Shown in pieces: positions 26,275 through 43,932 of a stretch of DNA of 44,915 nucleotides. Under the pieces are notes generated by a model. It saw nothing but the letters and a program-made list of their open reading frames with translations. It did not search any database and had not been told where the DNA came from. The DNA comes from Chitinophagaceae bacterium. Lineage in GTDB: Bacteria > Bacteroidota > Bacteroidia > Chitinophagales > Chitinophagaceae. The position numbers and the translations under genes were made by a program. Location: assembly GCA_035292525.1 (NCBI GenBank), contig DATDPZ010000230.1, forward strand, positions 1 to 44,915, given 5' to 3'. Within the stretch, counting starts at the first letter, position 1, and each line of letters begins with the position of its first letter.

Positions 26275-26276
26275 GT

Positions 26277-27554: not shown

Positions 27555-27624
27555 TTTATTTAGCTTTTTGCTGCTAGCTATAAGCCGATAGTTAATTGCT
27601 AAAGGCTCACAACTAAACGCTGTT

Positions 27625-29127
27625 TTAACACAACTGATATTCCGGCGTACTCATTAATTGCAACGTTGCTGACCTGATAAATTTTTCCATATTACTATCA
27701 TCAGCATGTTGCTGAATCAATTTGTTATTTACGGGATTACTGGTTTGCAATAAACTTTTACTGATCTCATTTACCAGTTGATCCTTTTGCACTTTTTCGA
27801 TTTTGGTACCAGAGAACTCTTTTGAAGATTTCATAAACGCAAAATGATTCAGGTAGTCTTTCCATTCAATAGTTGCTTTGATAACCGATCGTTTGCCATA
27901 ACCCATCATTTTGTTTTCGGTATCTGTCGTTTTTCGTCCCATCATCTGGTCGTCATCATCTTTATTAGTTAGATTTAATTCATCAGTTTCATTCAGCAAT
28001 TGCGGAATACGCATCCGCAGCATCAGGCTGCTGCTGTCAATCCATGTTTTTCCTCCCGGCCAGCCGGCCACATTTGGCGGATAAAATAATACCTGTCCAA
28101 GAGCTCTTTGCAAAAACGTAAAAGCTTCTTCATTCTCCAGTTTCATGGGCAGCATACGCCGGATGCCTGCAATCAATTCAATGGGTGATTTTATTTTGCT
28201 ACCGATATTTTTAGCTTCATAAAACCAGTTGCTGTTAAAAATATCATCCATTAATTTTCCAATATCATAATCACTTTTATAAAAACGATCAGCCAGCCAA
28301 TCAATCTTTTCGTTGTCAGGATTATCATTTACAAAAAACCGGTAGAGCTTTTGTGTAACATATTTTGCAGTCTGTTTATGTTCCAGTAAAATATCCAATA
28401 CTTCTGCTCCATCAAAATTGCCTGTTTTTCCCAACACAGTTTTTGATCCGAAATCATGTTGAAACCGACGGAAAATAAATTCGCCGTTAAATCCTGCACT
28501 CCATCCCGTAAATGCACGGGCAGCTTCCCTGATATCATTTTCTGAATAATGGCCACGTCCCATGGTAAAAAGTTCCATCACTTCCCGTGCAAAGTTTTCG
28601 TTAGGCTGATCTTTTTTATTTTGCTGATTATTTAAAAAATTCAGCATAGCCGCAGTTTTAGAAACTTCGTGCAGCATAATCCGGAAACTTCCCAGGGCAT
28701 TTCTGCGAAGTACATCCAGTAAGCCCTGCTGAAAAAATACATTCAGGTTGCGGCAGGCAAAATGGCCATGCCAGAAGAAAGCCGTTTTTTCTCTTAGTTG
28801 TGCATCTGTATTGACAAAAAGTTTCAACCAGTTCAGGTTAAGACTTCTTACGCCTTCTCTTTGTTTTTGCTGAACTTTTTTTCTCTCATCTTCTGACATT
28901 TCATTTCTTCTTTGCTGGCGACCGGCTTCTTCTATGCCGGCAAAGAGACCTTTGAGAAAATCATCTGCCACATCAATGAATTCTGGTTTTTTGGCCGATG
29001 ATTTTTTTAAAGCAGTAAATAATTGTTGGGGGGTAATACGGGAAAGATCAGTCAGCTGTTCTACGGCTGGACCGAATCCGGCCCGCCACATCAGGTGCTG
29101 ATTTTTTTCTTGATTAGACAAGGGCAT
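27625..29127 (-). CDS. DUF1800 domain protein
   Basis: 500 aa with HLMWRAGFGP, FWHGHFA and ENFAREVMELFTMG..Y.E.DIREAARAFTGW, the usual DUF1800 signature. It lies directly upstream of DUF1501. No signal peptide is visible. Confidence 0.8.
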   Translation of the reverse strand: MPLSNQEKNQHLMWRAGFGPAVEQLTDLSRITPQQLFTALKKSSAKKPEFIDVADDFLKGLFAGIEEAGRQQRRNEMSEDERKKVQQKQREGVRSLNLNWLKLFVNTDAQLREKTAFFWHGHFACRNLNVFFQQGLLDVLRRNALGSFRIMLHEVSKTAAMLNFLNNQQNKKDQPNENFAREVMELFTMGRGHYSENDIREAARAFTGWSAGFNGEFIFRRFQHDFGSKTVLGKTGNFDGAEVLDILLEHKQTAKYVTQKLYRFFVNDNPDNEKIDWLADRFYKSDYDIGKLMDDIFNSNWFYEAKNIGSKIKSPIELIAGIRRMLPMKLENEEAFTFLQRALGQVLFYPPNVAGWPGGKTWIDSSSLMLRMRIPQLLNETDELNLTNKDDDDQMMGRKTTDTENKMMGYGKRSVIKATIEWKDYLNHFAFMKSSKEFSGTKIEKVQKDQLVNEISKSLLQTSNPVNNKLIQQHADDSNMEKFIRSATLQLMSTPEYQLC

Positions 29128-29202
29128 TAATAAAATTTTGATTGTGACATCAATAAAATAACAAAGTTTAAGCCGTTCATCATATTGCTGTATTACTAAA
29201 TG

Positions 29203-29232
29203 TTGAATAAATGATGTTATTTTTTACATTTG
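29203..29232 (+). promoter_or_regulatory. Bacteroidota sigma-A type promoter, TTG-N19-TACATTTG
   Basis: TTG at 29203-29205, an exact 19-nt spacer, then TACATTTG at 29225-29232. The motif ends 14 nt before the ATG at 29247 and lies inside the longer ORF that starts at 29211. Confidence 0.55.
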
Positions 29233-29246
29233 TCCACCGAAAAGTT

Positions 29247-30290
29247 ATGAAGATCCGGGCACTAAAATACCTTTTACCATTGATACTTTATGCCGGGGCC
29301 ATCCTGTCCTTTCATGCTACCGGTATTATTGTCTGGTTTCCCCTGGTATTTGCCTGGGTGGTTATTCCTCTTCTTGAATTATTTATTAAGTCTGATGCGG
29401 GCAATATGAGTGCCACAGAAGAAGAACTCAGCAAGGCAGATAAAACTTATGAACTGATACTCTACCTGATTGTGCCCTTGCAATTCGTGTCGTTATATTT
29501 TTTCCTTTATAATTTAAATGACCCGTCATTGCGTTGGTACGATATTACCGGACGTATCTGGGTAATGGGATTGCTCTGTGGAGTATTTGGTATTAATGTG
29601 GGTCATGAACTGGGGCACCGGGTAAATAAATTTGAACAAACGCTGGCAAAAATGCTGTTGCTTACTTCGCTGTATATGCATTTTTTTATTGAGCATAATA
29701 AAGGACATCATAAAAGAGTAGCCACGCCGGAAGATCCCAGCAGTGCCCGCTATGGCGAATGGGTTTTTGCATTTTATTTCCGGTCAGTCATTTTCAGTTA
29801 CCTGAGTGCCTGGCATATTGCCAATAAGGAAGTGCAAAAAAAGGGATATGCTGTTTTTTCTATTCAAAATGAAATGATCCAATTTCAATTTATCCAGGGT
29901 GCATTTATAGCGCTGTTATTTTTTCTTTTCGGGTGGCTGATTACTCTTTATTTTCTTGCGGCAGCCGTTATTGGTTTTCTACTGCTGGAAACAGTTAACT
30001 ATATTGAACACTATGGGTTGCAAAGAAAAATTTCTGCAGAAGGTAAATATGAACGAGCCATGCCGGTACATAGCTGGAACAGTGACCATGTGATTGGCAG
30101 ACTTTTTCTTTTTGAGCTAAGCCGTCACAGTGATCATCATTATTTAGCCAGTAGAAAATACCAGCTGCTGCGCCATCATGATGATTCAACACAAATGCCT
30201 ACCGGTTACCCGGGGATGATGCTGCTGGCCCTGCTGCCGCCTGTTTGGTTTTGGGTGATGAATAAAAGGATAAAAAAATTGTCTGATTAA
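29247..30290 (+). CDS. alkB: Alkane 1-monooxygenase / membrane fatty-acid-desaturase family hydroxylase (AlkB-like)
   Basis: Histidine boxes HELGHR, EHNKGHH and HSDHH, plus NYIEHYGL. I chose the start at 29247 because of the promoter position. The alternative start is 29211. Confidence 0.8.
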   Translation: MKIRALKYLLPLILYAGAILSFHATGIIVWFPLVFAWVVIPLLELFIKSDAGNMSATEEELSKADKTYELILYLIVPLQFVSLYFFLYNLNDPSLRWYDITGRIWVMGLLCGVFGINVGHELGHRVNKFEQTLAKMLLLTSLYMHFFIEHNKGHHKRVATPEDPSSARYGEWVFAFYFRSVIFSYLSAWHIANKEVQKKGYAVFSIQNEMIQFQFIQGAFIALLFFLFGWLITLYFLAAAVIGFLLLETVNYIEHYGLQRKISAEGKYERAMPVHSWNSDHVIGRLFLFELSRHSDHHYLASRKYQLLRHHDDSTQMPTGYPGMMLLALLPPVWFWVMNKRIKKLSD

Positions 30291-30943
30291 CTCTTTTTTC
30301 TGTCCAATAATAATCTGAAACCAAAATAAAGATTGGATGAAAAATTATTCAGACTGCTTGAAACAGAGATCTGAGTGGATCTCAAAACATCATTAATACC
30401 AGGGTTGTCGATAAGATTTTTGGTTACCTGGTAACTGACACTGGCAATGTTTTTTAATCCTGCTTCCAGATGCAGTTTTTGAGAAACTTTATAAGAAAGA
30501 CCCGGAGAAACATTTATCCCGACTGAAGTTTGCTTACTTTTATTTATTGTAGTCTGAATTTCAAAACTACTTGTGGAATATCCAACGCCGGCATTTCCCT
30601 GTATAAATCCGGAAAAATTATTTTTAATACTGCTATACTTACGTATAAAATAACCCACCCCGGTATTATTTGTTTCAGTTATAGCGGAACTAAAATTATT
30701 TGTGCTTTTTGAACTTCCAATTTGCAGATAGCCTCCTTGTATAATATCCTGACGTGTGGCCACTCCGATCAATGGCGAAAAACTAAATCCATCGTTTTTA
30801 TTTGCAGTACCTGATAATGTTTTCTGTTCCTGAATAAAAATTGAAAGATCACCACCCAGCAATAAAGAACCTTTTGATACCTGTGTAAAACTTACGGAAT
30901 GAAGCATGGCCGACATCATAAATAGTAAAATTATTTTTTTCAT
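30287..30943 (-). CDS. Secreted beta-rich protein, a putative outer-membrane beta-barrel
   Basis: Signal peptide MKKIILLFMMSAMLHSVSFTQ followed by alternating S/G/T-rich strands. I prefer the ATG at 30943 to 31012. It overlaps the convergent alkB end by 4 nt. Confidence 0.5.
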   Translation of the reverse strand: MKKIILLFMMSAMLHSVSFTQVSKGSLLLGGDLSIFIQEQKTLSGTANKNDGFSFSPLIGVATRQDIIQGGYLQIGSSKSTNNFSSAITETNNTGVGYFIRKYSSIKNNFSGFIQGNAGVGYSTSSFEIQTTINKSKQTSVGINVSPGLSYKVSQKLHLEAGLKNIASVSYQVTKNLIDNPGINDVLRSTQISVSSSLNNFSSNLYFGFRLLLDRKKS

Positions 30944-31047
30944 AAGCTGTTTATTTTTTTGTGAAACTAAAGTTGAAAAAAGATAAAGAAAAACGATTTC
31001 ACCTGCTTTCACAAAACATTATCCAAACAAACTGTGAAGTGCATGAC

Positions 31048-32133
31048 CTACTCTACTTCTTTAATTTTGAGAAAAAGTGTTTTTAAGGTTTCGTTCTGAT
31101 GAATTCCGTTTTTATTAAACCACTCACTCTTTCTGATATAGTCAATTCGTTTAACCAGGTCCGGGTGGCTGCTGATCCATTCGCCTGATTGATTTCCAGA
31201 TTCCGTTATTTCCACATTCAGTAACTCAAATAAACGAACAAATCCATTGCCATCAATTTTCCTTTCGCTCAGTATTTTTAATCCCACCAGGTCAGCTTCT
31301 TTTTCCAGTTTCCGGGAATAGTTTAATCCTTTCAGGTGATCTGCATTACGAATCACAGTATTAGCCATAGAGCCAATATCACCAAAGATGATGGATAAAA
31401 AAACAGAAGATGCCAGTTGCCGGAAAAGTGTTCTTGTACTATGCTTCTTATTTACATGGGTGAACTCATGTGCTAATAAGGCGGCAAGATCCTCGTAATG
31501 ATCCATACCTGCCAGCATTTTATCATACACCACAATGTTTCCTCCCGGCATGGCGAAAGCATTGATAATTTCATCTTTTACAACCGAAATCCTGACACCA
31601 TATTCTGTAGGTATATTCAGTTCCCTGAAAAACTCATTTGTATAAAAAGTTTTTGCTTCGTCCAGTATAAAATTATTCCTGAGCGCATCATAAATTCCAT
31701 CACCCAGTTTTTCCTCATAAGAAACCGGCACCCTGTTCGCTAACCGCTCAGCCAAAAATGGAATTAAAAAAAAATATAACCCAACCAGAACAGTAAAAAA
31801 AATTCCCAGTCCCTTAGCTATTCTCATCACATTTTTATTGTTATTTCTTTTAATCCAGGATCTATCCCGGAGAGCAAGGATGCTTTCAAGCTTATCTGCA
31901 AACTCTTTGCTTTCCACTTCAATGATCTGAACAGGATAAGTGCCGCACCGCACAATGGCCTGTCCTCTTTTCCAGAAACTATCTTTGATGATCTGATGGT
32001 ATGGCCATACGATAACCTGTGGGTTATTGTTTTCATCCCGGGTGCCAATACTGATACGATCTTTTAATAATAAAACGGTAGCTTCCTGAGCCTTGCCATT
32101 TTGTAAATAATATTTTGCTGTAAAGGCATCCAT
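31048..32133 (-). CDS. M48 family zinc metallopeptidase with an N-terminal cytoplasmic domain and a membrane anchor
   Basis: 361 aa with the HEFTHV (HExxH) motif, a downstream EKEAD and the transmembrane segment GLGIFFTVLVGLYFFLIPFL. Its start codon shares 1 nt with the serS stop codon. Confidence 0.8.
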   Translation of the reverse strand: MDAFTAKYYLQNGKAQEATVLLLKDRISIGTRDENNNPQVIVWPYHQIIKDSFWKRGQAIVRCGTYPVQIIEVESKEFADKLESILALRDRSWIKRNNNKNVMRIAKGLGIFFTVLVGLYFFLIPFLAERLANRVPVSYEEKLGDGIYDALRNNFILDEAKTFYTNEFFRELNIPTEYGVRISVVKDEIINAFAMPGGNIVVYDKMLAGMDHYEDLAALLAHEFTHVNKKHSTRTLFRQLASSVFLSIIFGDIGSMANTVIRNADHLKGLNYSRKLEKEADLVGLKILSERKIDGNGFVRLFELLNVEITESGNQSGEWISSHPDLVKRIDYIRKSEWFNKNGIHQNETLKTLFLKIKEVE

Positions 32134-33404
32134 TATAAAATGGCGTCCGCGCCAAAATACTGATGAAGAACCAGGGGAAGATTTATTCTGCCGACGGTTT
32201 GATTATTCTCCAGCAAACAAGCAACAATCCTGGGCAATGCCAGTGAGCTTCCATTCAGTGAATGGACTAACTGCATTTTCCCGTTACTGTTTTTAAACCG
32301 GATTTTCATACGGTTAGTTTGAAAACTTTCAAAATTAGAAACAGAACTTACTTCCAGCCATTTTTCCTGTGCAGCGCAGAATACTTCAAAATCGTAAGTG
32401 AGGGCTGAAGCAAAACTCATATCACCGCCACATAGTTTTAAAATTCTGTACGGCAATTTCAATGAATTCAATAGTTTTTCAATATGGGTAACCATTTCTT
32501 CAAACACTTCATAGCTTTTATCAGGATGCACCAACTGAACGATCTCCACTTTATCAAACTGGTGAACCCGGTTGAGGCCTCTCACCTCTTTACCAAAACT
32601 TCCAGCTTCCCTTCTGAAACAAGGTGTGAACGCAGTCATCCTTATAGGCAGATCGGTTTCTTTTACAATTTCATCCCTGTAAATATTAGTTATCGGAACT
32701 TCGGCAGTAGGGATCATGAAAAAATTATCGGCAGGCATAAAATACATCTGTCCTTCTTTATCCGGAAGCTGACCCGTACCAAATGCACTTGCTTCATTTA
32801 CCATCAAGGGTGGCAGGTATTCGGTATAGCCGGCTGCGGTATTGAAGTCAAGAAAATATTGCACCAATGCCCTTTGTAATTTTGCGCCCTGTCCTTTATA
32901 TAATGGGAACCCGCTCCCGGTAATTTTTGCGCCGGTTTCAAAATCCACGATACCGTATTTTTTTATCAGCTCCCAATGCGGAACTGATCCAGCCGGTAGC
33001 ATTGGTATTTCTCCTGCTGTTTTTACAGTTACATTATCTTCAGGCGTTTTACCAACAGGTACTTTTTCTGATGGCAGGTTGGGAAGTAAAACGAGTTTAT
33101 CCTGCAATAGTTTTCCCGTTTCAGTTAATTTTTCTGTGACCGGCTGAAGTGAGGATTTTAATTCAGCTACTTCCTTTTTTTTGTTTTCAGCATCAACTTT
33201 TTGCCCTTTTGCCATCAACTGTCCTATTTCTTTTGATACACTGTTCACTTTTGACTGTATAGTATCAAAATCCAGTTGCAGTTTTTTTCTTTCATCATCC
33301 AGGTTCAGTATTTCATCTGCAAGGCCAGGTTCTGAAAAGTTTTTTACAGCCAGCCTGCTCTTCACCAACTCTGTATTATTCCGGATAAATGCAACCTGCA
33401 ACAT
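32133..33404 (-). CDS. serS: Serine--tRNA ligase
   Basis: MLQVAFIRNNTELVKSRLAVKNF... with a coiled-coil arm and class II motifs (FRREAGS, GSSLALPR). I prefer the ATG at 33404, and a -7 box lies 17 nt upstream. I rejected the ORF extension to 33530. Confidence 0.9.
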   Translation of the reverse strand: MLQVAFIRNNTELVKSRLAVKNFSEPGLADEILNLDDERKKLQLDFDTIQSKVNSVSKEIGQLMAKGQKVDAENKKKEVAELKSSLQPVTEKLTETGKLLQDKLVLLPNLPSEKVPVGKTPEDNVTVKTAGEIPMLPAGSVPHWELIKKYGIVDFETGAKITGSGFPLYKGQGAKLQRALVQYFLDFNTAAGYTEYLPPLMVNEASAFGTGQLPDKEGQMYFMPADNFFMIPTAEVPITNIYRDEIVKETDLPIRMTAFTPCFRREAGSFGKEVRGLNRVHQFDKVEIVQLVHPDKSYEVFEEMVTHIEKLLNSLKLPYRILKLCGGDMSFASALTYDFEVFCAAQEKWLEVSSVSNFESFQTNRMKIRFKNSNGKMQLVHSLNGSSLALPRIVACLLENNQTVGRINLPLVLHQYFGADAIL

Positions 33405-33421
33405 TCTTTTCCAATTTGCGG

Positions 33422-33429
33422 CAAAGATA
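33422..33429 (-). promoter_or_regulatory. -7 promoter box TATCTTTG for serS
   Basis: The minus strand reads TATCTTTG (TAnnTTTG), 17 nt upstream of the serS ATG. Confidence 0.45.
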
Positions 33430-33531
33430 AAAGGAATACCATACAAGAATAAGAGTAATAATTGCATCAGGTTAAATGAGGGTTCAATTTCCAAATTCCC
33501 AATCACTAATTCCTTCATTACTCCTCTCACC

Positions 33532-33539
33532 TATCTTTG
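33532..33539 (+). promoter_or_regulatory. -7 promoter box TATCTTTG for the divergent hypothetical gene
   Basis: The plus strand reads TATCTTTG, ending 5 nt before the ATG at 33545. This implies a leaderless or near-leaderless mRNA, or a later start codon. Confidence 0.4.
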
Positions 33540-33544
33540 CCTTT

Positions 33545-33889
33545 ATGGAAATAAAGGATGATCTGCAATCCCGCTGGTGGGCTTTGGAAGCAAAACTGAT
33601 GGAGCGATTTGGCAAAAAACCTGATCTTGAAACTATCCTGTTCCTGATCGGCATCCAGGAGTTTGGACAAATACGGGAAAAATTTACTAAGGAGCAAAAA
33701 CAGGATCTTATGCATGTGGCCGTTTGCAGCTTGTTTTCAGCCAGCGGATTTTATGAACTGGAGGGAAAAGATACTGATGGCTGGCCGCATTTCCGGCAAT
33801 TGAAAACCATGCCCGAGATGAATATGTTTGAACAGGAAAACTTCCTGAAAGACCATATCCTCCTTTATTTTGAAAATCATTCTTTATAA
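33545..33889 (+). CDS. Hypothetical cytoplasmic protein
   Basis: 114 aa (MEIKDDLQSRWWALEAKLMERFGKKPDLETILFLIGIQEFG...). I recognised no motifs. I rejected the ORF extension to 33476. Confidence 0.5.
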   Translation: MEIKDDLQSRWWALEAKLMERFGKKPDLETILFLIGIQEFGQIREKFTKEQKQDLMHVAVCSLFSASGFYELEGKDTDGWPHFRQLKTMPEMNMFEQENFLKDHILLYFENHSL

Positions 33890-33994
33890 TCAATAGCTTT
33901 TTACAGGAAAAAATTGATACTGATTTTTGGATACCAATCCGGATGGACACAGGTGATTCATATAGGACAATTAAAAAACATTAAATAATAACAC

Positions 33995-34702
33995 ATGAAA
34001 AAATGGATTGTATTTGTACTTAGTTGTATTCTTTTTCTTTCATTATCTGCACAAAAAGATTCAGTGATTAAGAAAAAAGACAGTAAAAGAGATGTGCTAA
34101 TACAAACCAGTATGGGTGATATGGTGATCCGGCTTTCGGATTCCACACCTTTGCATCGCGATAATTTTCTGAAACTGGTGAAAAAGAAATTTTATGACAG
34201 TGTGTTATTTCACCGGGTAATCAGGAATTTTATGATTCAAAGCGGGGATCCCAACAGTAAAACAGCCAAACCGGGTCAATCGCTTGGAAATGGCGGACCG
34301 GGCTATACCATAGCTGCAGAATTCAGAACATCCCTGTTTCATAAAAAAGGAATGCTGGCCGCTGCCAGGATGAGCGATAATGTAAACCCGCAAAAGGCCA
34401 GCAGTGGCAGCCAGTTTTACATAGTACAGGGGAAGGTATTCAGTGATGCCGGGCTTGATTCTGCCGAAACGTTCAGGCTGAATGGCAGAAAAATTCCATT
34501 AAATCAACGGGAAGTTTATAAAACTATTGGTGGCGTTCCCCATCTTGACCAGAGCTATACTGTATTTGGAGAAGTGGTTTTGGGTCTAGATGTTCTTGAT
34601 AAAATAGCAGCAGTAGAAACCAGTAAGGGACAGGACCGGGACAGACCTGTTCAAGATGTAAAAATCATCAATACAAAACTGGTGAAACGAAAACGCAGGT
34701 AA
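33995..34702 (+). CDS. Peptidyl-prolyl cis-trans isomerase, cyclophilin type, secreted
   Basis: Signal peptide MKKWIVFVLSCILFLSLSAQ, then FHRVIRNFMIQSGDP, SGSQFYIV and TVFGEVV. Confidence 0.9.
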   Translation: MKKWIVFVLSCILFLSLSAQKDSVIKKKDSKRDVLIQTSMGDMVIRLSDSTPLHRDNFLKLVKKKFYDSVLFHRVIRNFMIQSGDPNSKTAKPGQSLGNGGPGYTIAAEFRTSLFHKKGMLAAARMSDNVNPQKASSGSQFYIVQGKVFSDAGLDSAETFRLNGRKIPLNQREVYKTIGGVPHLDQSYTVFGEVVLGLDVLDKIAAVETSKGQDRDRPVQDVKIINTKLVKRKRR

Positions 34703-34773
34703 ATACAATACTAAAAAACTTTTTAAGCATTTCAACTTGTTTTTATAATCTTTGCAGCTCAAAACACATAGCT

Positions 34774-35151
34774 ATGAATTTCCCAAAAAATCTCCGTTAT
34801 ACAAAAGATCATGAGTGGATAAAACTGGATGGTAATATTGCTACTATTGGGATTACCGATTTTGCACAAAGGGAACTGGGTGACATCGTTTATATAGAAG
34901 TAGAAACTATTGGTAAATCATTAAAAGCAGGAGAAGTGTTTGGTACCGTGGAAGCTGTGAAAACCGTTTCTGATCTGTTTATGCCATTAAACGGTACGAT
35001 AACAGAACTGAATCCTGCACTTGCAAATTCTCCCGAATCAGTCAACAATGATCCTTATGGTGAAGGATGGATGATTAAAATGAAGGTAGGGAATCCCGAT
35101 GATTTGAATGCATTAATGGATGCGGCAGCCTATCAGGCTATGGTATCATAA
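34774..35151 (+). CDS. gcvH: Glycine cleavage system protein H
   Basis: 125 aa with YTKDHEWI, the lipoyl-lysine context VEAVKTVSDL, and DPYGEGWM. Confidence 0.95.
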   Translation: MNFPKNLRYTKDHEWIKLDGNIATIGITDFAQRELGDIVYIEVETIGKSLKAGEVFGTVEAVKTVSDLFMPLNGTITELNPALANSPESVNNDPYGEGWMIKMKVGNPDDLNALMDAAAYQAMVS

Positions 35152-35180
35152 ATCTGTACAAAGAAATTTATCGTTTATAA
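35150..35180 (+). promoter_or_regulatory. ECF-type promoter candidate, AAATCT-N16-CGTTTATAA, upstream of the ECF sigma gene
   Basis: AAATCT at 35150-35155, a 16-nt spacer, then CGTTTATAA at 35172-35180. It is about 50 nt upstream of the TTG start at 35230 and has the same architecture as the two copies at 39871-39979. Confidence 0.5.
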
Positions 35181-35229
35181 AGTATACCCGAGCCAGGGAT
35201 GTATTATTTTTTTTAGCTTTAACCAACAA

Positions 35230-35772
35230 TTGAACTCAACTTCCAAATACAGCGAACAGGAGCTTATTGTTTTGCTTAAAGAGCAAAGCAATGAGGGGTT
35301 CAATTATTTATATGATAATTATTCAGGTGCTTTGTTTACCATCATTAACCAGGTGGTAGCCGACAAAGACATTGCCAGCGATGTTTTACAGGAAGTCTTT
35401 GTTAATATCTGGAGAAAAATAAACCTGTATGATGCAACGAAAGGAAGAATATTTACCTGGATGCTGAATATAGCCAGAAATGCAGCTATTGATAAAGTAA
35501 GATCCAAAGGATTCATAATTAACCTGAAAAACCAGCCTATTTCAGATAACGTAAATGCTGTAATAACTGCAAGTGTACAGCCCGAAACCTGTGATGTAGG
35601 ACTAAAAAAGGTATTGATGAAATTGAAAGAAGAGTATCGAACTTTGATTGACCTTTCGTATTTCCAGGGATTTACTCATGAAGAAATTTCAAAAATGCTG
35701 GGAATTCCGTTGGGTACCGTAAAAACAAGAATCAGAACTGCATTAAGTCAATTAAGAATATTGATACAATAA
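35230..35772 (+). CDS. ECF-type RNA polymerase sigma factor
   Basis: 180 aa with a TTG start. Region 2 reads DVLQEVFVNIWRKINLYDATKGRIFTWMLNIARNAAIDKVR and region 4 reads YRTLIDLSYFQGFTHEEISKMLGIPLGTVKTRIRTAL. Confidence 0.85.
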   Translation: MNSTSKYSEQELIVLLKEQSNEGFNYLYDNYSGALFTIINQVVADKDIASDVLQEVFVNIWRKINLYDATKGRIFTWMLNIARNAAIDKVRSKGFIINLKNQPISDNVNAVITASVQPETCDVGLKKVLMKLKEEYRTLIDLSYFQGFTHEEISKMLGIPLGTVKTRIRTALSQLRILIQ

Positions 35773-35776
35773 AAAA

Positions 35777-36550
35777 GTGAATAGCAAGGAATACATATCA
35801 AGTGGAATGATCGAAAGCTATGTGCTGGGTTTGCTCAGTGCAGAAGAAAACCTTGAAATGGAACGTGCCTGTGCAGAATACCCGGAAATAAAAGCTGCCA
35901 GAGAAGCATTTGAATTGCTGGTAGAAGAGCAAGCTATGGAAAATGCAAAGCCAGCGCCCCGGGAATTAAAACAAAAAATTGCTGCTGAACTATTTTCGGA
36001 TTTTGAGTCTGCACCGGTTATTCCAGTTTCCTCGTCTCCTGTACGGGATAGAAGCCCAAAAACTTTCCGATGGCTTCGTTATGCTGCAGCTGCCAGTTTT
36101 ATTTTACTGGTTGGTAGTTTGTGGTGGAATATGAATTTGAAAAATGAAAACAGGGAAATTAAAGCTCAGTTAGAAGATTTCAATAACAGATTGGCACAGG
36201 CAGAACAAGATGCCAGAGTAATCCAGGGCTCAAATAAGATAGCTATTTTAGCCGGCACAGCATTTTCTCCTCAGTCATCTGCAACTGTTTACTGGGATAC
36301 TACTTCACATGATGTTTATCTGCTGGTAAATAATCTCCCGATCCCCGCTTCAGATGAACAATACCAGCTTTGGGCCTTATTAGATGGCAAACCGATAGAC
36401 ATGGGTGTGTTTGAAATCACACAAAAACCACTTCAGCTATACCGGATGAAGAATGCACAGGCCGCACAGGCTTTTGCCATTACACTGGAGAAAAAAGGCG
36501 GCAGCCCCACGCCAACTCTGGAAAAAATCGTAGTGCTTGGAAATTTATAA
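35777..36550 (+). CDS. Anti-sigma factor, RskA (anti-sigma-K) type
   Basis: It starts 4 nt after the sigma gene stop. The N-terminal helix is SGMIESYVLGLLSAEENLEMERACAEYPEIKAAREAFE, there is one transmembrane helix (AAAASFILLVGSLWW), and the C-terminal domain reads YQLWALLDGKPIDMGVF...AFAITLEKKGGSPTPT, as typical of RskA. Confidence 0.8.
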   Translation: MNSKEYISSGMIESYVLGLLSAEENLEMERACAEYPEIKAAREAFELLVEEQAMENAKPAPRELKQKIAAELFSDFESAPVIPVSSSPVRDRSPKTFRWLRYAAAASFILLVGSLWWNMNLKNENREIKAQLEDFNNRLAQAEQDARVIQGSNKIAILAGTAFSPQSSATVYWDTTSHDVYLLVNNLPIPASDEQYQLWALLDGKPIDMGVFEITQKPLQLYRMKNAQAAQAFAITLEKKGGSPTPTLEKIVVLGNL

Positions 36551-36648
36551 CCTCCTTTTTTAAAACTGTTCCTCTATTTTTTTCGTACCTCTATTGGTTC
36601 GATCGCTACTTGCTATAGTGGTTTTGGTTCTATAGTTGGTTTAAAGCC

Positions 36649-36678
36649 GGAGCCCTCTTTTGGGGGCTCCATTTTTTT
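36649..36678 (+). terminator. Rho-independent terminator about 100 nt after the anti-sigma gene
   Basis: GGAGCCC and GGGCTCC form a 7-bp stem with an 8-nt loop, followed by ATTTTTTT. Confidence 0.7.
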
Positions 36679-36782
36679 GTTTATCCCTTTTCTGCAATGA
36701 GTTATTTTAGCATTACTAAAACCGGTGAAGTCTATTATAATTTATTTCACTTTTCAATAAATATTTTTTGAGAAAGAAAAAA

Positions 36783-37151
36783 ATGCCCCTGTTTGTAGCA
36801 ATTACCTGGCTAATTGTTGTAACAATTTTGTTGTGCCTGCCCGGTAATGAGTTTCCTAAGATCAGCTGGCTAAATAAAATTTGGTTTGACAAATGGGTGC
36901 ACCTCGGTTTATTTTTTGCATTGACAGCAATCTGGTGCTTGTACTTTTCCGGTAAAAAAACTGAAACCGGCAAAAGAAGAAAAATTTTTACCCGGCTTGC
37001 AATACTAAGTTTTGTGTATGGAATGACAATGGAAGTAATTCAGCATTATTTTATACCATTAAGGTCTTTCGATGTTGGAGATATCCTGGCCGATGGAGCC
37101 GGTTCGCTGGGAGGATTTCTTTATTCATTAAGTAAATTTTTGAATAAATAA
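36783..37151 (+). CDS. VanZ family membrane protein
   Basis: MPLFVAITWLIVVTILLCLPG...DKWVHLGLFFALT...MEVIQ..IP.R.FD..D..AD..G. I prefer the ATG at 36783 to the TTG at 36768. Confidence 0.75.
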   Translation: MPLFVAITWLIVVTILLCLPGNEFPKISWLNKIWFDKWVHLGLFFALTAIWCLYFSGKKTETGKRRKIFTRLAILSFVYGMTMEVIQHYFIPLRSFDVGDILADGAGSLGGFLYSLSKFLNK

Positions 37152-37210
37152 ACCACGGGTAGTTCCGGGGTTTGAAGGAATTTATTCATCCTGAGAACAT
37201 ATATTTTACA

Positions 37211-38500
37211 TTATAACTTCCTTTTTATTTCTTCACTGTTCAATGGGCCCAGTTCAAATGAACTGTCCAGGCATTCCTGAAATAATTTTTCAGCAACTTT
37301 TTTTTCTCCGGTATTTTCAAGAATATATGCTGCATGCAGCAGGGCCTCTGGTTCATGAGTTTTTCCTAAAACAAATTTGTTCACCAGGTCATTGGCTTTA
37401 TTCACTTCTCCTTTTTTATAATATACCCAGGCCATCCAGTCATATGTTTCAGGAGTTGGCCGGTTGTTCACTTCTTTTTCTGCAAGGGCCAGTGCTTTAT
37501 CAAAATCCATCAATTCCTCCGCATAAATACGGATCAGGTATTTGTTGTACATATTTACATAAGCAGGGTTTTCAACAATTGAAACAAATTTTGAAATGTA
37601 ATCTTTTTTCAATTCTGCATCTCCTTCCCATTCTGCTATTTCTGCAAGAGTCAGGTAGAGATCCGGCATCTGGGTCTTAGTTAATATATATTGAAGAAGA
37701 CGTTTAGCTTCTTTACTGTTTTTGTCGTGAGAAAAAGCGATCCAGGCAATGCCTTTTAGTGCATACAGGAAAGTACTGTCAAGACGTAAAACATCCAGGT
37801 AATTTTTATATGCTTCTTCCACTCTGCCGGCATGACCGTACATATCCGCCAGGTTTGATTTTGCCCACAGGATCAGGGAACTTTTATTTGCAGATTCTGC
37901 CTTTCCCAACGCCTGTTCCATCAGCAGGATCGCCTTATCAAGATGGCCATAATGATCTTCCGACTTTGCTTTCCGGATCAGGTAGTCAAACTCGTTTATA
38001 TTTTTTACCTGGTTTAAATTGTCTTCCGCTTCACCAAAAAGCCCGATTTCCATTGCTGCGTCAAACTTTAAAAGCTTTATTACGTAAGGATTCACTCCTA
38101 TACTGTCTGCTAACTGCAAATATGCCCATGCATCCTGGAAACGATGTTGGGTAATGGCATTTTGTGCAATAGAAAAATAAATTTCGGGCTCTGTATTTTT
38201 TACTTTGGAAAGGCATCTGACATAAAAAGAATCAGCAATATGCAGATCATTTGCCTGGCCAGTTATTTTAAACCGATTTATATGATTGGATGCCAGTTCC
38301 AGCATATTCACATAGCTACCGGTATCTGCCAAAAGTCTGTTCTGCCAGAAGTCAATTTCTGAATTTGCATTTTCCAGCGGTATTTTCATTCTGTTTTCAT
38401 CAGAAAGAAAAACATTGTAGTCTTCAGGATTTGCAATTTTATTGTTGTTGCATGCACTAAAGAAAAACAGGAAACTTAAAAAAATAATAATCCGGTTCAT
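37211..38500 (-). CDS. Tetratricopeptide-repeat lipoprotein
   Basis: 429 aa with lipoprotein signal MNRIIIFLSFLFFFSAC, followed by repeated helical A/Y/L-pattern TPR-like units. Confidence 0.65.
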   Translation of the reverse strand: MNRIIIFLSFLFFFSACNNNKIANPEDYNVFLSDENRMKIPLENANSEIDFWQNRLLADTGSYVNMLELASNHINRFKITGQANDLHIADSFYVRCLSKVKNTEPEIYFSIAQNAITQHRFQDAWAYLQLADSIGVNPYVIKLLKFDAAMEIGLFGEAEDNLNQVKNINEFDYLIRKAKSEDHYGHLDKAILLMEQALGKAESANKSSLILWAKSNLADMYGHAGRVEEAYKNYLDVLRLDSTFLYALKGIAWIAFSHDKNSKEAKRLLQYILTKTQMPDLYLTLAEIAEWEGDAELKKDYISKFVSIVENPAYVNMYNKYLIRIYAEELMDFDKALALAEKEVNNRPTPETYDWMAWVYYKKGEVNKANDLVNKFVLGKTHEPEALLHAAYILENTGEKKVAEKLFQECLDSSFELGPLNSEEIKRKL

Positions 38501-38512
38501 AGCTGGTTGGTT

Positions 38513-38543
38513 TAAAAATCCGGGCTTACTAAAAAGCCCGGAT
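38513..38543 (-). terminator. Rho-independent terminator after the DUF4331 gene pair
   Basis: The minus strand reads ATCCGGGCT / AGCCCGGAT, a 9-bp stem with an 8-nt loop, followed by TTTTT. It lies between the distal DUF4331 gene and the TPR gene. Confidence 0.7.
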
Positions 38544-38560
38544 CAGAAATAATGTTTTAA

Positions 38561-39094
38561 TTAATGTGGTGAAGCCAGGAAAGGAAACACTGTAAGAAAT
38601 GTTTTATCATTTGCGTTTACATTATCCTTAGTTAATCCAGGATTAGCGCTGCCCATGGGCCCGCCGAAAATAAGCAGCAATTCCGTGTCAATTACATCAT
38701 CAGAAAGAGCCCTTCCGGTTAAAACATTAGTGCCATCAAAGAAAGTAGTTGTTCCACTCATTTTTACATTCAGCACATCAGTTACTAAAGCACCGGCAAA
38801 CGTAGCTTTATCCATACCCAATGCATTGGAAGTATACCCAAAACCGGTTAATACTGACTGGAACTGCGCATTAAAAGCTGCATTCATTTGAGAGGGAACA
38901 GTGTTGTTAAATTCGTTCTTGCGGGCAGAGCCGACAAATACTGTATTGATAGCCGGTCTGGCCATCTGATCTACCTGTGTATAAGTACCGGATGTGTCAA
39001 AAGTTTCAATGCTTGTCTTGTCTTTTTTGCAGCCTGCTGCAATCAGCATCATTGCTATTCCGGAGAAAACTATGAATTTATTTAGTGTATTCAT
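38561..39094 (-). CDS. DUF4331-like lipoprotein, corresponding to the C-terminal half of long DUF4331 proteins
   Basis: 177 aa with lipoprotein signal ...MMLIAAGC. MARPAINTVF and the C-terminal FPFLASPH match what I remember of the distal DUF4331 region. Confidence 0.6.
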   Translation of the reverse strand: MNTLNKFIVFSGIAMMLIAAGCKKDKTSIETFDTSGTYTQVDQMARPAINTVFVGSARKNEFNNTVPSQMNAAFNAQFQSVLTGFGYTSNALGMDKATFAGALVTDVLNVKMSGTTTFFDGTNVLTGRALSDDVIDTELLLIFGGPMGSANPGLTKDNVNANDKTFLTVFPFLASPH

Positions 39095-39125
39095 GATTAT
39101 GATTATTTTTTGATTAACGGTTAAT

Positions 39126-39797
39126 TTATTTCATTTTAGTTTCGGCCCATACGTTGATTGTTGCCACATTTCCCAAAAGTGCTTTAGGAATTTCAGCCAC
39201 AATTGACATCACATTAGTACCGGCAAATGCATCTACCCCGGGATTGCGAAACCCGGAGTGTGTGCCTCCAAGAATTTCTTTAAACCTGGACAGGTCAAAA
39301 AAGAAAGGATCATCACGGGGGCCAGCAAATATTTTGATGCCATTTGCATTGGTACCAATAGAAGGAGAAGAGCTATAAGCAGTAACAGATGTTTCTGTTA
39401 AGAGGCCATTGATTTTTACGGTACTAACAGTGCCAGTAGATCCGGGAGCTACCGGGCCATATGTCCTGAGTTTACCATTTTTAATAAGAAATTGAAAAAC
39501 GAGATCTTCCACATTATCTCCGGTATTGTCAATATTCAGTTCATACATCACATTGGATGGAAAAACTGCTGAGCCGGTAGCAGTTGGCGAAAGCAATCCT
39601 TGTGCATTAATAACAAATACCATTTTGCTGTTATCCCCAGGATTCTGGAATGCATAAATGTCGGTAATGTCGGTTCCAAGACTGGTACTGCCTGATCCTG
39701 TTACAGCAGGTGCATCAATATGATCAGCTGCATAAATTATGGCGCCTAGAGTAAAGACTCCGGCCAGGGCCGTCAATACGATTTTTCTTTTTGTCAT
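39126..39797 (-). CDS. DUF4331 family secreted protein, N-terminal half type
   Basis: 223 aa. The signal peptide MTKRKIVLTALAGVFTLGAIIYA is followed by ADHIDAP...DITDIYAF...GPRDDPFFFD, the characteristic DUF4331 opening motifs as I remember them. Confidence 0.7.
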   Translation of the reverse strand: MTKRKIVLTALAGVFTLGAIIYAADHIDAPAVTGSGSTSLGTDITDIYAFQNPGDNSKMVFVINAQGLLSPTATGSAVFPSNVMYELNIDNTGDNVEDLVFQFLIKNGKLRTYGPVAPGSTGTVSTVKINGLLTETSVTAYSSSPSIGTNANGIKIFAGPRDDPFFFDLSRFKEILGGTHSGFRNPGVDAFAGTNVMSIVAEIPKALLGNVATINVWAETKMK

Positions 39798-39870
39798 AAA
39801 AAAATTTTAGGTTTTAAATATTTATTGATTTGACCGTATAAGATGATATGCCTGTACGGAATGAATTGCA

Positions 39871-39901
39871 TTATATACGGCAGTTTTTCTTTTCCGGATT
39901 T
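39871..39901 (-). promoter_or_regulatory. ECF-type promoter candidate, AAATCC-N16-CGTATATAA, facing the DUF4331 operon
   Basis: The minus strand reads AAATCCGGAAAAGAAAAACTGCCGTATATAA. Both half-sites are identical to those of the plus-strand copy at 39948-39979. Confidence 0.55.
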
Positions 39902-39947
39902 ATGAATTTTTTTCCAGACAATCTTTTTATACCTGATTTAAGAAAGC

Positions 39948-39979
39948 AAATCCGGGAAAGTGGCTTCTCCCGTATATAA
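39948..39979 (+). promoter_or_regulatory. ECF-type promoter candidate, AAATCC-N17-CGTATATAA, facing the TonB-dependent receptor
   Basis: The plus strand reads AAATCCGGGAAAGTGGCTTCTCCCGTATATAA and ends 18 nt before the ATG at 39998. Confidence 0.55.
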
Positions 39980-39997
39980 CACATAACAAAACCGCTG

Positions 39998-42250
39998 ATG
40001 AAAAAAATAATTTTTTCAGTTTTACTGCTGTTTTCAATCAACCTCCCGGCACAAAAAGGAATTATTGAAGGATATATTAAAGACGGAGAAACCTCTTCGC
40101 CTTTGCCCGGCGCCAGTATACTGGTAACTACAGAACGTAAAGGAGAAAATACAGATCAGTTTGGCAAATTCAGAATTGCTGATATTATTCCGGGCAACTA
40201 TGAACTGGTAGCAACACATATTGGATATAAAACCGAAATTATACTGGTAGAAATTAAAGAAAACCTTGTGAGTACTGTTTTGGTGAATATGAAAAAAGCC
40301 AATCTCGATCTTGAAGAGATAAAACTGGAAGGCAGAAAAGATAACTTGCTAAATACTTTAAACCATATTGACATTATGCTCCGGCCGGTTAACACCTCGC
40401 AGGATGTATTACGGATAGTGCCGGGTTTATTTATAGCACAGCATGCAGGTGGCGGCAAAGCAGAACAAATTTTTTTAAGGGGATATGATATTGATCATGG
40501 TACGGATATTCAAATTACCGTTGATGATATGCCGGTGAATATGGTTAGTCATACACATGGGCAAGGCTATGCCGATCTGCATTTTCTTATTCCGGAAACT
40601 GTAGAAAAAGTAAATTTTGATAAAGGGCCCTATTTTTCAAACAAGGGAAACCAGGCCACAGCCGGGTTTGTGGAATTTCAAACCAAAGCGTTTATAAAAA
40701 ATAATACCATAAAACTGGAAACCGGCCGGTTCAATACACAAAGAGCAGTTGTTTTAGTAAAACTATTTAACAAGGAAAAAACCGGAAACCGGAAACAAAT
40801 TTACCTGGCCTCAGAATATTCCAGGTCGGACAGTTATTTTGAAAGTTCACAAGATTTTCATCGCTTTAACCTGATGGGTAAATACAATGTAATATTGAGT
40901 AAGCAGACTCAGCTGACAATTACAGCATCCTCATTTGACAGCAAATGGAATGCATCAGGACAAATACCGGAAAGAGCAGTAAAAAATAAATCGATCGGCC
41001 GTTTTGGAGCAATTGATAATAGTGAAGGGGGATATACAGGGCGAACCAATTTCAACATGCTCATTTCAAAACAATGGAAGAATGACTGGAAAAGTAATAG
41101 CCGGTTTTATTACAGCCGGTATCATTTCAAATTATTTTCAAATTTTACATTTTTTTTGAATGACCCGGTAAAAGGTGATCAGATTAAGCAAAAAGAGAAA
41201 AGAAATATTTATGGATATTCAACCCGGCTTTCAAAATCATGGTTGCCGGGCAATAAAAATACAATCAGCGAAATGGGATGGGGGTTTCGGCTGGATGATA
41301 TAAATGATATTGAACTGTCGAAATCTGTGAAAAGACTTCAACTGGAAACTTTACAAACCGGGAATGTGAATGAGATCAATATGTTTCTGTTCTGGAACCA
41401 GCAGGTAGATTTAACAGATCGTTTTACTATTAATGGTGGTATTCGCATTGATGCCTTTCAGTTTAAATACCAAAACCTGTTACTCCAGGAAAATAACATT
41501 CAACAGCAGCACAGAAACATTCTGAGTCCCAAATTAAATTTTGTTTACTCATTATCAGCTAAAGTAAAAATATATTTTAATAACGGAATAGGTTTTCATT
41601 CCAATGACACAAGGGTAATTCTGAATAACCAGGCAAATGATATTTTACCAAAAGTTTTGGGTTCAGATCTGGGTCTCATGCTGAAGCCGGCCAGTAACTT
41701 TATCATTAAAACTGCCATCTGGCAAATGTTTTCACAACAGGAATTTGTATATGTAGGTGATGAAGGAATAATAGAACCCGGTGGAAAAACAAAAAGGACC
41801 GGGTTGGATCTCTCCCTCAGATACCAGTTTTCAAAATGGCTGTTTGGAGATTTTGATCTGAATCTGACCAAAGCCAGGGCAACGGATAATGCGAAAGGAG
41901 AAAACTATGTTCCGCTTGCAGCAGCTTTAACAAGCATTGGCGGAATAACTGCCAAATCAAAAAATGGATTCAACGGTTCTTTCCGTTACCGGTTTATCAC
42001 TGACCGGCCCGCCAATGAGTTCAATACTATAAGAGCAAAAGGTTATATCATTGCAGATATACAATTATCCTATTCCAATTCTAATTTTGAATTCTCACTG
42101 TCAGCAGAAAATATATTTAACAGTAAATGGCGGGAGGCACAGTTTGAAACAAATTCCAGATTACAATACGAATCGGAGCCTGTTTCTGAAATTCATTTTA
42201 CACCAGGATCTCCCATGTTTCTGAAAGCTGCCTTTACATTGAAATTCTAA
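39998..42250 (+). CDS. TonB-dependent receptor with an N-terminal carboxypeptidase-regulatory-like domain
   Basis: 750 aa with signal peptide MKKIIFSVLLLFSINLPAQ. The CarboxypepD_reg-like segment is GYIKDGETSSPLPGASILV...GNYELVATHIGYK and the plug is LRGYDIDHGTDIQITVDDMPVNMVSHTHGQGYADL. The barrel ends in AAFTLKF. Confidence 0.9.
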   Translation: MKKIIFSVLLLFSINLPAQKGIIEGYIKDGETSSPLPGASILVTTERKGENTDQFGKFRIADIIPGNYELVATHIGYKTEIILVEIKENLVSTVLVNMKKANLDLEEIKLEGRKDNLLNTLNHIDIMLRPVNTSQDVLRIVPGLFIAQHAGGGKAEQIFLRGYDIDHGTDIQITVDDMPVNMVSHTHGQGYADLHFLIPETVEKVNFDKGPYFSNKGNQATAGFVEFQTKAFIKNNTIKLETGRFNTQRAVVLVKLFNKEKTGNRKQIYLASEYSRSDSYFESSQDFHRFNLMGKYNVILSKQTQLTITASSFDSKWNASGQIPERAVKNKSIGRFGAIDNSEGGYTGRTNFNMLISKQWKNDWKSNSRFYYSRYHFKLFSNFTFFLNDPVKGDQIKQKEKRNIYGYSTRLSKSWLPGNKNTISEMGWGFRLDDINDIELSKSVKRLQLETLQTGNVNEINMFLFWNQQVDLTDRFTINGGIRIDAFQFKYQNLLLQENNIQQQHRNILSPKLNFVYSLSAKVKIYFNNGIGFHSNDTRVILNNQANDILPKVLGSDLGLMLKPASNFIIKTAIWQMFSQQEFVYVGDEGIIEPGGKTKRTGLDLSLRYQFSKWLFGDFDLNLTKARATDNAKGENYVPLAAALTSIGGITAKSKNGFNGSFRYRFITDRPANEFNTIRAKGYIIADIQLSYSNSNFEFSLSAENIFNSKWREAQFETNSRLQYESEPVSEIHFTPGSPMFLKAAFTLKF

Positions 42251-42317
42251 TCACATATTCCTTATTTGTTTGGTAACCAGTTGCACAAAATCTACTTTCT
42301 GTTCTTAGTTATGGCAT

Positions 42318-42349
42318 AAAAAAAATTGACCCCTGTGGAAACAGGGGTC
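42318..42349 (-). terminator. Strong minus-strand rho-independent terminator about 360 nt downstream of prfA
   Basis: GACCCCTGT and ACAGGGGTC form a 9-bp stem at 42328-42349 with a 4-nt loop (GGAA on the plus strand). On the minus strand it is followed by AA and then eight T. Confidence 0.65.
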
Positions 42350-42493
42350 GCAACCAAAACTAACTGCTTATGAGAAAAATGACTGTTTTTAATAATCTTG
42401 TTCAAAAGTATAACGCAAATTTACTGCCATTAGTATGATCTGTCATGTTAATGAAAAATTAAAGCTCAGTCTTCGTATTTACTACAATAACAT

Positions 42494-42522
42494 CGGGTAA
42501 AATTTCTAAGAAATTTTACCCG
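42494..42522. repeat. Perfect 13-bp palindrome with a 3-nt centre in a gene-free region
   Basis: CGGGTAAAATTTC TAA GAAATTTTACCCG, followed by an A8 run on the plus strand. Neither strand has a T-tract after the hairpin. Confidence 0.7.
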
Positions 42523-42707
42523 GAAAAAAAAGATTCAACTAATAGAGCATCAGTAGTTAGTAACAATATCCCTTTTGTTAAAATAACAATTCTAAGACTT
42601 GAAGAAATTTAAAATTCAGTGGTATCATTAATCAATTAAACATCTTATACGACAGACTTTCATGAAAATAGCAAAAGCAGAAAGCTTTATCTTCTCTGAT
42701 TCTGCAA

Positions 42708-43772
42708 TTAATTTTGTTTTGCCAGCTTTTCAGAATTCTCGGCAAATTGTAAAGCATCAATGAATTCCTGGATATCTCCGTTCATAAAAGCAGGAAGGTT
42801 ATAGGAAGTAAGCCCGATACGATGATCGGTAACTCTTCCCTGGGGAAAATTATAAGTTCGGATCTTGGCGCTGCGGTCACCACTGCTCACCAGGCTTTTC
42901 CGGTGACGGGAAATTTCATCCTCCTGTTTTCTTACCTGCTCTTCATAAAGTTTTGTCCGAAGCATCTGCATTGCTTTTTCCCTGTTACCAAGTTGTGACC
43001 TTTCTGTTTGACAAATAATAACGGTACCTGTTGGCAGATGCGTCAGCATTACTTTTGTTTCCACTTTATTTACGTTTTGACCACCGGCACCGCCGCTTCT
43101 GGCCGTTTCCATCTTCACGTCACTTTCATTCAGTTCAAAGTCCACCTCTTCTGCTTCGGGCATGACAGCCACGGTGGCTGCCGAAGTATGTACACGTCCC
43201 GATCCCTCTGTTTCCGGTACTCTTTGAACCCGGTGTACGCCACTTTCAAATTTTAAAATACCATACACTTCATCACCGGTAACCTCCAGTTGCACTTCTT
43301 TATAGCCACCTACTGTTCCCTCGCTTTCACTGAGTATGGCTGTTTTCCATCCACGTCTTTCGCAATAACGGATATACATTCTTAATAATTCACCAGCAAA
43401 TAAACTGGCCTCATCTCCTCCTGTACCGGCCCTTATTTCAATAATAGCATTTTTATCGTCCTGAAGGTCTTTGGGAATCAGCATCTGCCGGATAACTGCT
43501 TCCATCTTTTCTTTTTTCTCTTCGGCTACCGGGGCTTCTGTTTTAGCCAGCTCCCTCATCTCTTCATCATCTCCGTTCAGCGCTTCTTTATAAAAAGCCA
43601 TATCATCCAGGAGTTTTCTGTATTCCTTATAAGCATTCACTATTTTTTCCAGGCTGCGGTATTCTTTGCTGGTAGCAACAAATTTTTTATTGTCATTTAC
43701 AATCTCAGGATTGGTCAGTGCAACACCCAATTGATCAAATCTTGCTTTTATGGCTTCTAACCTGTCTAACAT
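42708..43772 (-). CDS. prfA: Peptide chain release factor 1
   Basis: 354 aa with the RF1 tripeptide context RVQRVPETE and the GGQ motif [15 protein letters not shown]. Confidence 0.95.
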
Positions 43773-43926: not shown

Positions 43927-43932
43927 CCGCAA

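Follow-up and report, generated by a model that had tools for sequence, protein, structure and literature searches.

A short bipartite sequence in front of an ECF sigma factor gene, here called P_sig, is probably the distal, sigma-dependent promoter of the sigma/anti-sigma operon, providing positive autoregulation. In this soil Bacteroidota bacterium, P_sig would be one of five promoters of a feedback unit, which also includes a predicted promoter inside the sigma gene (P_int) and a candidate small RNA. The unit was found on a stretch of 44,915 nucleotides, referred to below as the window. A search of sequencing runs returned its sequence in DNA metagenomes only and in no RNA run. As an element, P_sig is ordinary and belongs to the known class of autoregulatory ECF promoters. 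Its peculiarities are a sub-consensus -10 element in the window genome and an unusual place in front of a presumed terminator. P_int and the candidate small RNA are more interesting than P_sig itself.

Autoregulation is widespread among ECF sigma factors, about half of which control their own expression (PMC7776599). An earlier note on this DNA proposed positive autoregulation from a cognate promoter, a proposal supported by footprinting and by the motif's tie to the sigma family. In the proposed mechanism, an RskA-type membrane anti-sigma factor would release the ECF sigma factor, and the resulting holoenzyme would recognise promoters of the form AAATCY-N16-CGTA. The released sigma factor would act at a DUF4331-TPR operon, at the gene of a TonB-dependent receptor, and at its own gene via P_sig. 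Two further cognate promoters in the operon would balance this positive loop. One of them, P_int, would allow the anti-sigma gene to be transcribed alone. The other, located after the anti-sigma gene and called P_sRNA, would produce a small RNA whose sequence is complementary to the sigma start region.

P_sig consists of the hexamer AAATCT, a 16-nt spacer (35156-35171) and the element CGTTTATAA, all read on the forward strand. The gcvH gene ends with a TAA stop codon at 35149-35151, so the first two A's of the upstream half-site come from that codon. The overlap with the gcvH stop described in the earlier note thus amounts to two shared bases. Likewise, the distance of about 50 nt to the sigma gene is measured as 49 nt between the end of P_sig and the TTG start at 35230. 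Two copies of the same architecture had been placed about 4.7 kb away. Both were found near 39.9 kb, and the sequence confirms that P_sig differs from them by one base in each half-site. The site has the features of an ECF promoter, namely a bipartite -35/-10 arrangement, a fixed spacer of 16-17 nt and a -10 element containing CGT. The features discussed here are collected in Table 1.

Table 1. Positions of the promoters, genes and RNA elements in the window.
Feature	Position	Strand	Remarks
gcvH ORF	34774..35151	+	PF01597, E = 2e-42
P_sig -35 element, AAATCT	35150..35155	+	AAATCY, AAAACY or TAATCT across 14 lineages
P_sig -10 element, CGTTTATAA	35172..35180	+	fourth base T; A in nearly all relatives
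Terminator-like hairpin (35181-35205) with T-run (35207-35214), presumably the gcvH terminator	35181..35214	+	from folding and consensus
Conserved box TAGCTTTAACCAACAA directly before TTG	35214..35229	+	sigmaA-like -7 box and complement of the small-RNA seed (AACCAAC)
ECF sigma factor gene	35230..35772	+	sigma2 (PF04542) and sigma4 (PF08281); SigK-like
P_int (predicted), AAAACC-N16-CGTAAATGC	35528..35558	+	in codons of the sigma2-sigma4 linker; matrix score 17.0
RskA-type transmembrane anti-sigma gene	35777..36550	+	PF10099 (RskA_C); NF052375, 107 bits against a cut-off of 100
P_sRNA (predicted), AAAACT-N16-CGTACCTCT	36562..36592	+	ECF-type; 12 nt after the anti-sigma stop; window score 10.7
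Candidate ECF-dependent small RNA, about 85 nt	36596..36680	+	unpaired 17-mer, terminator, T-run
TPR gene start region, AAACCAACCAGCTATGAACC	38481..38525	-	second site complementary to the small RNA; duplex -22.7 kcal/mol
Reference copy 1, promoter of the DUF4331N-DUF4331C-TPR operon, AAATCC-N16-CGTATATAA	39871..39901	-	matrix score 20.3
Reference copy 2, promoter of the TonB-dependent receptor gene, AAATCC-N17-CGTATATAA	39948..39979	+	matrix score 19.1

The pattern AAATCY-N16/17-CGTWTATAA occurs exactly three times in the window, and the exact pattern of P_sig gave no match in 100 shuffles. With a looser pattern, AATC-N17/18-CGT, both strands of the window together give four matches, three of which are P_sig and the two reference copies. 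Sites were also scored with a two-block position matrix. This matrix was trained on 19 non-redundant sites taken from other genomes, where they lie upstream of DUF4331N and receptor genes, and the training set excluded every window site and every site upstream of a sigma gene. P_sig scores 12.2, which is rank 5 of 89,762 positions in the window. Markov-simulated sequences of window size reach this score about twice each (it was attained in 88 of 100 simulations), so P_sig alone is not significant window-wide, and a claim of that kind was rejected. On its own sequence, P_sig is only suggestive. For the approximately 100 nt upstream of the sigma gene, the chance of such a match is about 0.009.

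The low score is chiefly due to the fourth base of the -10 element. This base is T in the window, giving CGTT in place of the family consensus CGTA; all 19 training sites and 12 of the 14 orthologous sites have A. Among the orthologous sites, that of the window has the lowest score, and the CGTT sequence probably lowers the strength of the promoter in the window genome.

Another line of evidence comes from related loci, which were collected from single contigs as well as from genomes and metagenomes. Close homologues of the sigma protein are numerous, and the gene order PPIase-gcvH-sigma-rskA-VanZ is kept in a clade whose sigma identity is 55-84%. Thirteen lineages share the TTG start of the sigma gene. 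Of the 13 lineages with gcvH-sigma synteny, 11 have their best upstream match to the matrix at -76 to -81 from the TTG. Scores range from 13.4 to 22.1 (L147, L148, L149, L150, L151, L001, L002, L082, L083 and L005), compared with 12.2 in the window, and the local chance of each orthologous match is at most 0.009. The matrix scan found no such site in two lineages of the synteny group (L004/L084 and L085). A pattern search found the same site in three other close relatives (L152, L153 and L154), making 14 lineages in all. The motif is thus kept upstream of orthologous sigma genes, which was the check suggested in the earlier note.

All 14 orthologous sites, the window included, have a spacer of exactly 16 nt. 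When the sites are anchored on CGT, the information content is 1.66 bits per position in the -35 hexamer and 1.48 in the -10 element; the spacer has 0.79 and the flanks about 0.5. The conservation of P_sig is confined to the two half-sites. In three lineages (L149, L150 and L001), P_sig is kept though the DUF4331 cassette is not nearby. An upstream site scoring at least 13 is present in only 17 of 72 dereplicated sigma homologues. The upstream promoter is therefore a clade-specific solution and not a family-wide one.

An example of a known arrangement of this kind is the autoregulatory promoter of B. subtilis sigW, TGAAAC-N16-CGTA; another is E. coli rpoE P2. Like these, P_sig is bipartite, has a 16-nt spacer and a CGT(A) -10 element, lies upstream of a sigma/anti-sigma operon, and shares its motif with sites in front of regulon genes. 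Unlike them, it has an AAATCY -35 element in place of a GAAC-like one, overlaps the stop codon of the upstream gene and precedes the presumed terminator of that gene; it is also a predicted promoter.

The region between P_sig and the sigma gene contains the terminator-like hairpin. In 8-9 of 11 lineages, gcvH is followed by such a hairpin and a T-run; the hairpin consensus has 10 pairs, 3 of them compensatory, with several broken cells. The full hairpin has a folding energy of -8.1 kcal/mol in the window, where the stem is weak, and of -8 to -16.6 kcal/mol across lineages. A generic sigma-70/terminator scanner, which is uninformative for Bacteroidota promoters, did not list the weak gcvH hairpin. 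As a presumed gcvH terminator, this hairpin would argue against expression of sigma by read-through alone; the earlier note had named exclusive read-through from gcvH as the outcome that would speak against its proposal, and the hairpin is found in most lineages.

At ECF promoters, transcription starts 10 nt after the flipped-out base of the -10 element (PMC7776599). By this rule, transcription from P_sig is predicted to start at about 35184-35186, 12-13 nt past the C of CGT and inside the 5' arm of the hairpin. Across lineages this arm begins 4-11 nt after the C of CGT. A start within the 5' arm is a geometry that recurs in most orthologues. Because the predicted start is inside the arm, an RNA initiated by sigma would not carry the complete terminator. 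Folded from the predicted start, the remaining structure has only -4.6 kcal/mol in the window and about -4 to -7 kcal/mol across lineages. Transcripts of gcvH would stop at the hairpin, and RNA started at P_sig would bypass the terminator and escape into the sigma gene.

Closer to the sigma gene, a conserved box directly precedes the TTG and reads TA(G/T)CTTT(T)AACCAAC across lineages. In Flavobacterium, the Bacteroidota sigmaA -7 box TAnnTTTG lies at -12 to -5 (PMC9723704). A sigmaA-like -7 box of the TAnnTT[CT]G type is found 7-10 nt before the conserved TTG in many members of the sigma family, and besides the window (35214-35232) such boxes occur in L030, L039, L048, L050, L054 and L095. 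These recurring boxes suggest a proximal basal promoter, which would produce a nearly leaderless mRNA. Basal expression of sigma would then probably come from the sigmaA-like box beside the TTG.

The position of P_sig admits two other explanations. The conserved sequence may serve gcvH, as part of its 3' end, its terminator context or an A-rich tract, or it may serve another regulator, with the resemblance to an ECF promoter being coincidental. The site does overlap the gcvH stop codon and abut the terminator-like hairpin, and its spacer is A-rich and then T-rich in most lineages. Such a coincidence is nonetheless very unlikely, for the conserved positions are the exact half-sites of a matrix derived from unrelated promoters, and the spacer of 16 is invariant. 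Moreover, in L082 and L083 the site lies 4-5 nt past the gcvH stop, where there is no overlap and the hairpin has no T-run, but the motif and its 16-nt spacer are kept. The motif is also kept in L005, in which no hairpin occurs within about 19 nt after it. In the other explanation, P_sig is active but most of its transcripts end at the hairpin and T-run, yielding a short leader or attenuated RNA, so that P_sig would not be a simple positive-feedback promoter. In 8-9 of 11 lineages, the region 9-40 nt downstream of the -10 element holds the hairpin and T-run, which could stop P_sig transcripts if the start were further upstream than predicted; with a start only 2-4 nt further upstream, most of the stem would be transcribed. 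Attenuation is nevertheless very unlikely, as folding from the predicted start leaves only 3-5 bp with -4 to -7 kcal/mol, and the fixed distance to the TTG (-76 to -81) fits a promoter that serves the sigma gene.

The CGTT sequence bears on a further explanation. P_sig may be a decayed or very weak relic of a real autoregulatory promoter, largely inactivated by the change from CGTA to CGTT. Expression of sigma would in that case rely on the proximal sigmaA-like box or on read-through, with feedback passing only through P_int and the small-RNA promoter. Besides the 19 training sites without exception, 48 of 53 intragenic sites have CGTA, the window site scores lowest of its orthologues, and the intragenic site of the same sigma gene scores 17.0. 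On the other hand, CGTT is fixed in close relatives about 98% identical to the window, in which the whole of 35150-35180 is unchanged. A second lineage, L153, likewise has CGTT at the same site with the remaining motif intact, so T at this position appears to be tolerated. CGTT serves as the -10 element in many ECF families, which also disfavours decay, and a relic is unlikely. The preferred interpretation of P_sig is that of an autoregulatory promoter, with a predicted dependence on sigma.

The proteins encoded downstream show a SigK/RskA arrangement, in which a two-domain ECF sigma factor is followed by an anti-sigma factor with an RskA_C domain. The best NCBIfam match of the sigma protein is NF007228 (SigK) with 120.3 bits, which is below the cut-off of 226, so that the threshold of the curated SigK family is not reached. 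The nearest solved structures are 2Q1Z and 4NQW, the latter being SigK. In SigK, a conserved pair of cysteines forms a redox switch (PMC7826278). The sigma protein described here is 180 amino acids long and has a single cysteine; the SigK redox pair is therefore absent.

The M. tuberculosis SigK/RskA system (ECF19) is thus a useful comparison. Its likenesses are the SigK family as best NCBIfam match, the nearby structure 4NQW, the RskA_C anti-sigma factor, and a small and local regulon. Unlike M. tuberculosis SigK, the sigma protein of the window is below the family cut-off and without the redox cysteine pair, and its regulon consists of DUF4331, TPR and TonB-dependent receptor genes and not of mpt70/mpt83. 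In M. tuberculosis, SigK does not drive the promoter directly upstream of its own gene; autoregulation occurs through the Rv0449c promoter (PMC7509140). This counts against autoregulation by P_sig, since the prototype SigK has no SigK-dependent promoter directly upstream (PMC7509140).

The predicted regulon carries the two reference copies, both of which lie in a divergent intergenic region at 39.8-40.0 kb. Sites of the form AA(A/T)(T/A)CC-N16-CGTA are found upstream of DUF4331N and receptor genes across Bacteroidota. The sigma/RskA pair is linked to the DUF4331-TPR-receptor cassette across this phylum at 38-85% sigma identity. For instance, sigma homologues of 38-47% identity, together with their RskA partner, are directly beside a DUF4331N-DUF4331C-TPR(-receptor) cassette. 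The motif is therefore found upstream of genes that are co-conserved with the sigma/anti-sigma pair, as documented by the 19 non-redundant sites from other genomes.

In several cassette-linked loci, the sigma gene is downstream of the cassette and in the same direction, and a separate upstream site was not found for it. By analogy with M. tuberculosis SigK, autoregulation in these loci could occur via the operon.

The earlier note regarded P_sig as what links the sigma factor to the DUF4331 and receptor promoters. The link itself is supported, but P_sig is not the only one, as P_int and the copy after the anti-sigma gene also carry the motif. P_sig would provide a missing regulatory link for a conserved and uncharacterised set of genes, consisting of two DUF4331 genes, a TPR gene and a TonB-dependent receptor gene; no mention of DUF4331 was found in the literature searched. 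The set can be assigned to a defined ECF sigma/anti-sigma pair with the consensus aAAATCC-N16-CGTAaaTA. This makes regulon prediction possible in Bacteroidota genomes, and deletion of the anti-sigma gene would offer a simple switch to turn the system on.

Several minor observations concern the cassette. In the window, DUF4331 is represented by two consecutive ORFs (38561-39797, reverse strand) of 223 aa, corresponding to the middle of the profile, and 177 aa, corresponding to its C-terminal end. A frameshift artefact can be dismissed, as every related locus across the phylum shows the split. The cassette lies between VanZ and prfA (37211-42250 in the window), and not every lineage of the synteny group has it. 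Compared in L149, L150, L001, L082 and L083, the cassette varies in this way and the sigma/anti-sigma/small-RNA unit stays put. L148 has kept only the receptor gene, along with an orphan divergent promoter at L148:11926 (reverse strand). Finally, the matrix also matches position 1867 on the reverse strand of the window (ACAATCC...CCGTAAAGATT, spacer 15, score 15.0), within a receptor-like ORF close to the beginning of the window. This match is probably due to chance.

P_int is the third-best matrix match in the window, and it lies within codons that join the two sigma domains. A site scoring at least 13 is found at its position in 47 of 72 sigma homologues. P_int is thus a stronger match than P_sig and is far more widely conserved.

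The conservation of P_int exceeds what the protein sequence needs. The codon before the valine ends in C in 56 of 69 sequences, even though 14 different amino acids are encoded there (p = 1.5e-31; C makes up 16.8% of third codon positions in the background). Likewise, 48 of 53 sequences use GTA for the valine, compared with 35% elsewhere (p = 9e-16). These are synonymous sites, and P_int is kept by selection on the nucleotides and not on the protein. Because the motif is embedded in the coding sequence of sigma under selection at the nucleotide level, it is tied to the sigma family. P_int establishes this tie more firmly than P_sig does.

A precedent for such a promoter is rseA P3 of E. coli, a sigmaE-dependent promoter inside rpoE with its start 228 nt upstream of rseA (PMC8595263). 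P_int has the characteristics of this type, being a cognate site inside the sigma gene from which the anti-sigma gene would be transcribed without sigma. Its start is predicted at about 35563, which is 214 nt before the start of the anti-sigma gene. Unlike rseA P3, P_int is conserved across a phylum-wide family by constraint on synonymous sites, and it is a predicted promoter. It would add a negative-feedback arm to the circuit. Another candidate product of the intragenic transcript, a protein containing only sigma4, was rejected, as the in-frame Met130 is not conserved.

The -10 element of P_sRNA begins with CGTACC, and the promoter scores 12-19 in eight orthologue lineages. The transcript predicted to start from it contains an unpaired and conserved 17-mer, TGGTTCTATAGTTGGTT, at 36625-36641. 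This 17-mer is identical in the window and nine other loci and has one mismatch in four more, in lineages whose sigma proteins are only 66-84% identical. The terminator (36649-36670) shows compensatory changes in 6 of 9 pairs. Throughout the clade, in 14 sources, the element is matched by a covariance model with 69-89 bits. It was found in L046 too, with its own ECF-type site and with a receptor gene between the element and the operon. A search of Rfam returned no family at E <=1 in 34600-40100. A weak Rfam match at 39872-39978 was rejected; it arises only because the two divergent promoters are inverted relative to each other.

The 17-mer is antisense to AACCAAC..TTG..GAACC, the start region of the sigma gene. 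The predicted duplex has -18 to -27 kcal/mol in 10 lineages, with z-scores of -3.6 to -6.6 against shuffled start regions. When whole loci are scanned, the sigma start region is the top window in two of them and ranks 4th to 43rd of approximately 3,300-8,200 windows in the other eight. The mRNA of L148 has two A-to-G changes, which would form G-U wobbles and so still allow pairing.

The start of the TPR gene, which is the top site in a scan of 25000-44915 of the window, may be a further target in the regulon. The corresponding duplexes have -20.9 kcal/mol in L147 and -18.4 kcal/mol in L151. Pairing with the small RNA was also considered as the sole explanation for the AACCAAC box. This idea is weakened by the clade of L094 and L095, which has AACCAAC without the small RNA; in both, AACCAAC adjoins the sigmaA-like box.

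The element has the sequence features of a trans-acting small RNA, namely a promoter, an unpaired seed, a covarying terminator and complementarity to targets. Examples for comparison are MicA, RybB and MicL, the sigmaE-dependent small RNAs of enterobacteria. Like them, the candidate has an ECF-type promoter, a conserved unpaired seed and an intrinsic terminator, and it is predicted to form the repressing arm of an ECF response. Unlike them, its predicted targets are the start region of its own sigma mRNA and a TPR gene of the regulon, and it occurs in Bacteroidota without a match in Rfam.

Tentatively, a terminator-escaping P_sig, P_int and a seed-antisense small RNA may together form a compact three-tier feedback for a Bacteroidota-wide and uncharacterised ECF family, a reading that is somewhat less likely than not. 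A positive-feedback start within the terminator stem of the upstream gene would permit escape from that terminator. The cognate promoter in the sigma2-sigma4 linker codons would supply extra anti-sigma factor. The invariant 17-nt seed would act antisense to the start regions of sigma and of the TPR gene of the regulon. The small RNA would pair fully only with the longer sigma transcript that is initiated by the ECF sigma factor. If confirmed, the circuit would be a compact case of layered ECF feedback in Bacteroidota, a phylum that has almost no dissected ECF circuits or small RNAs.

A last observation concerns the seed itself. In the window, the small RNA has a partial tandem duplication of the seed at 36617-36641 (forward strand), with GCTATAGTGGTT followed by TCTATAGTTGGTT.
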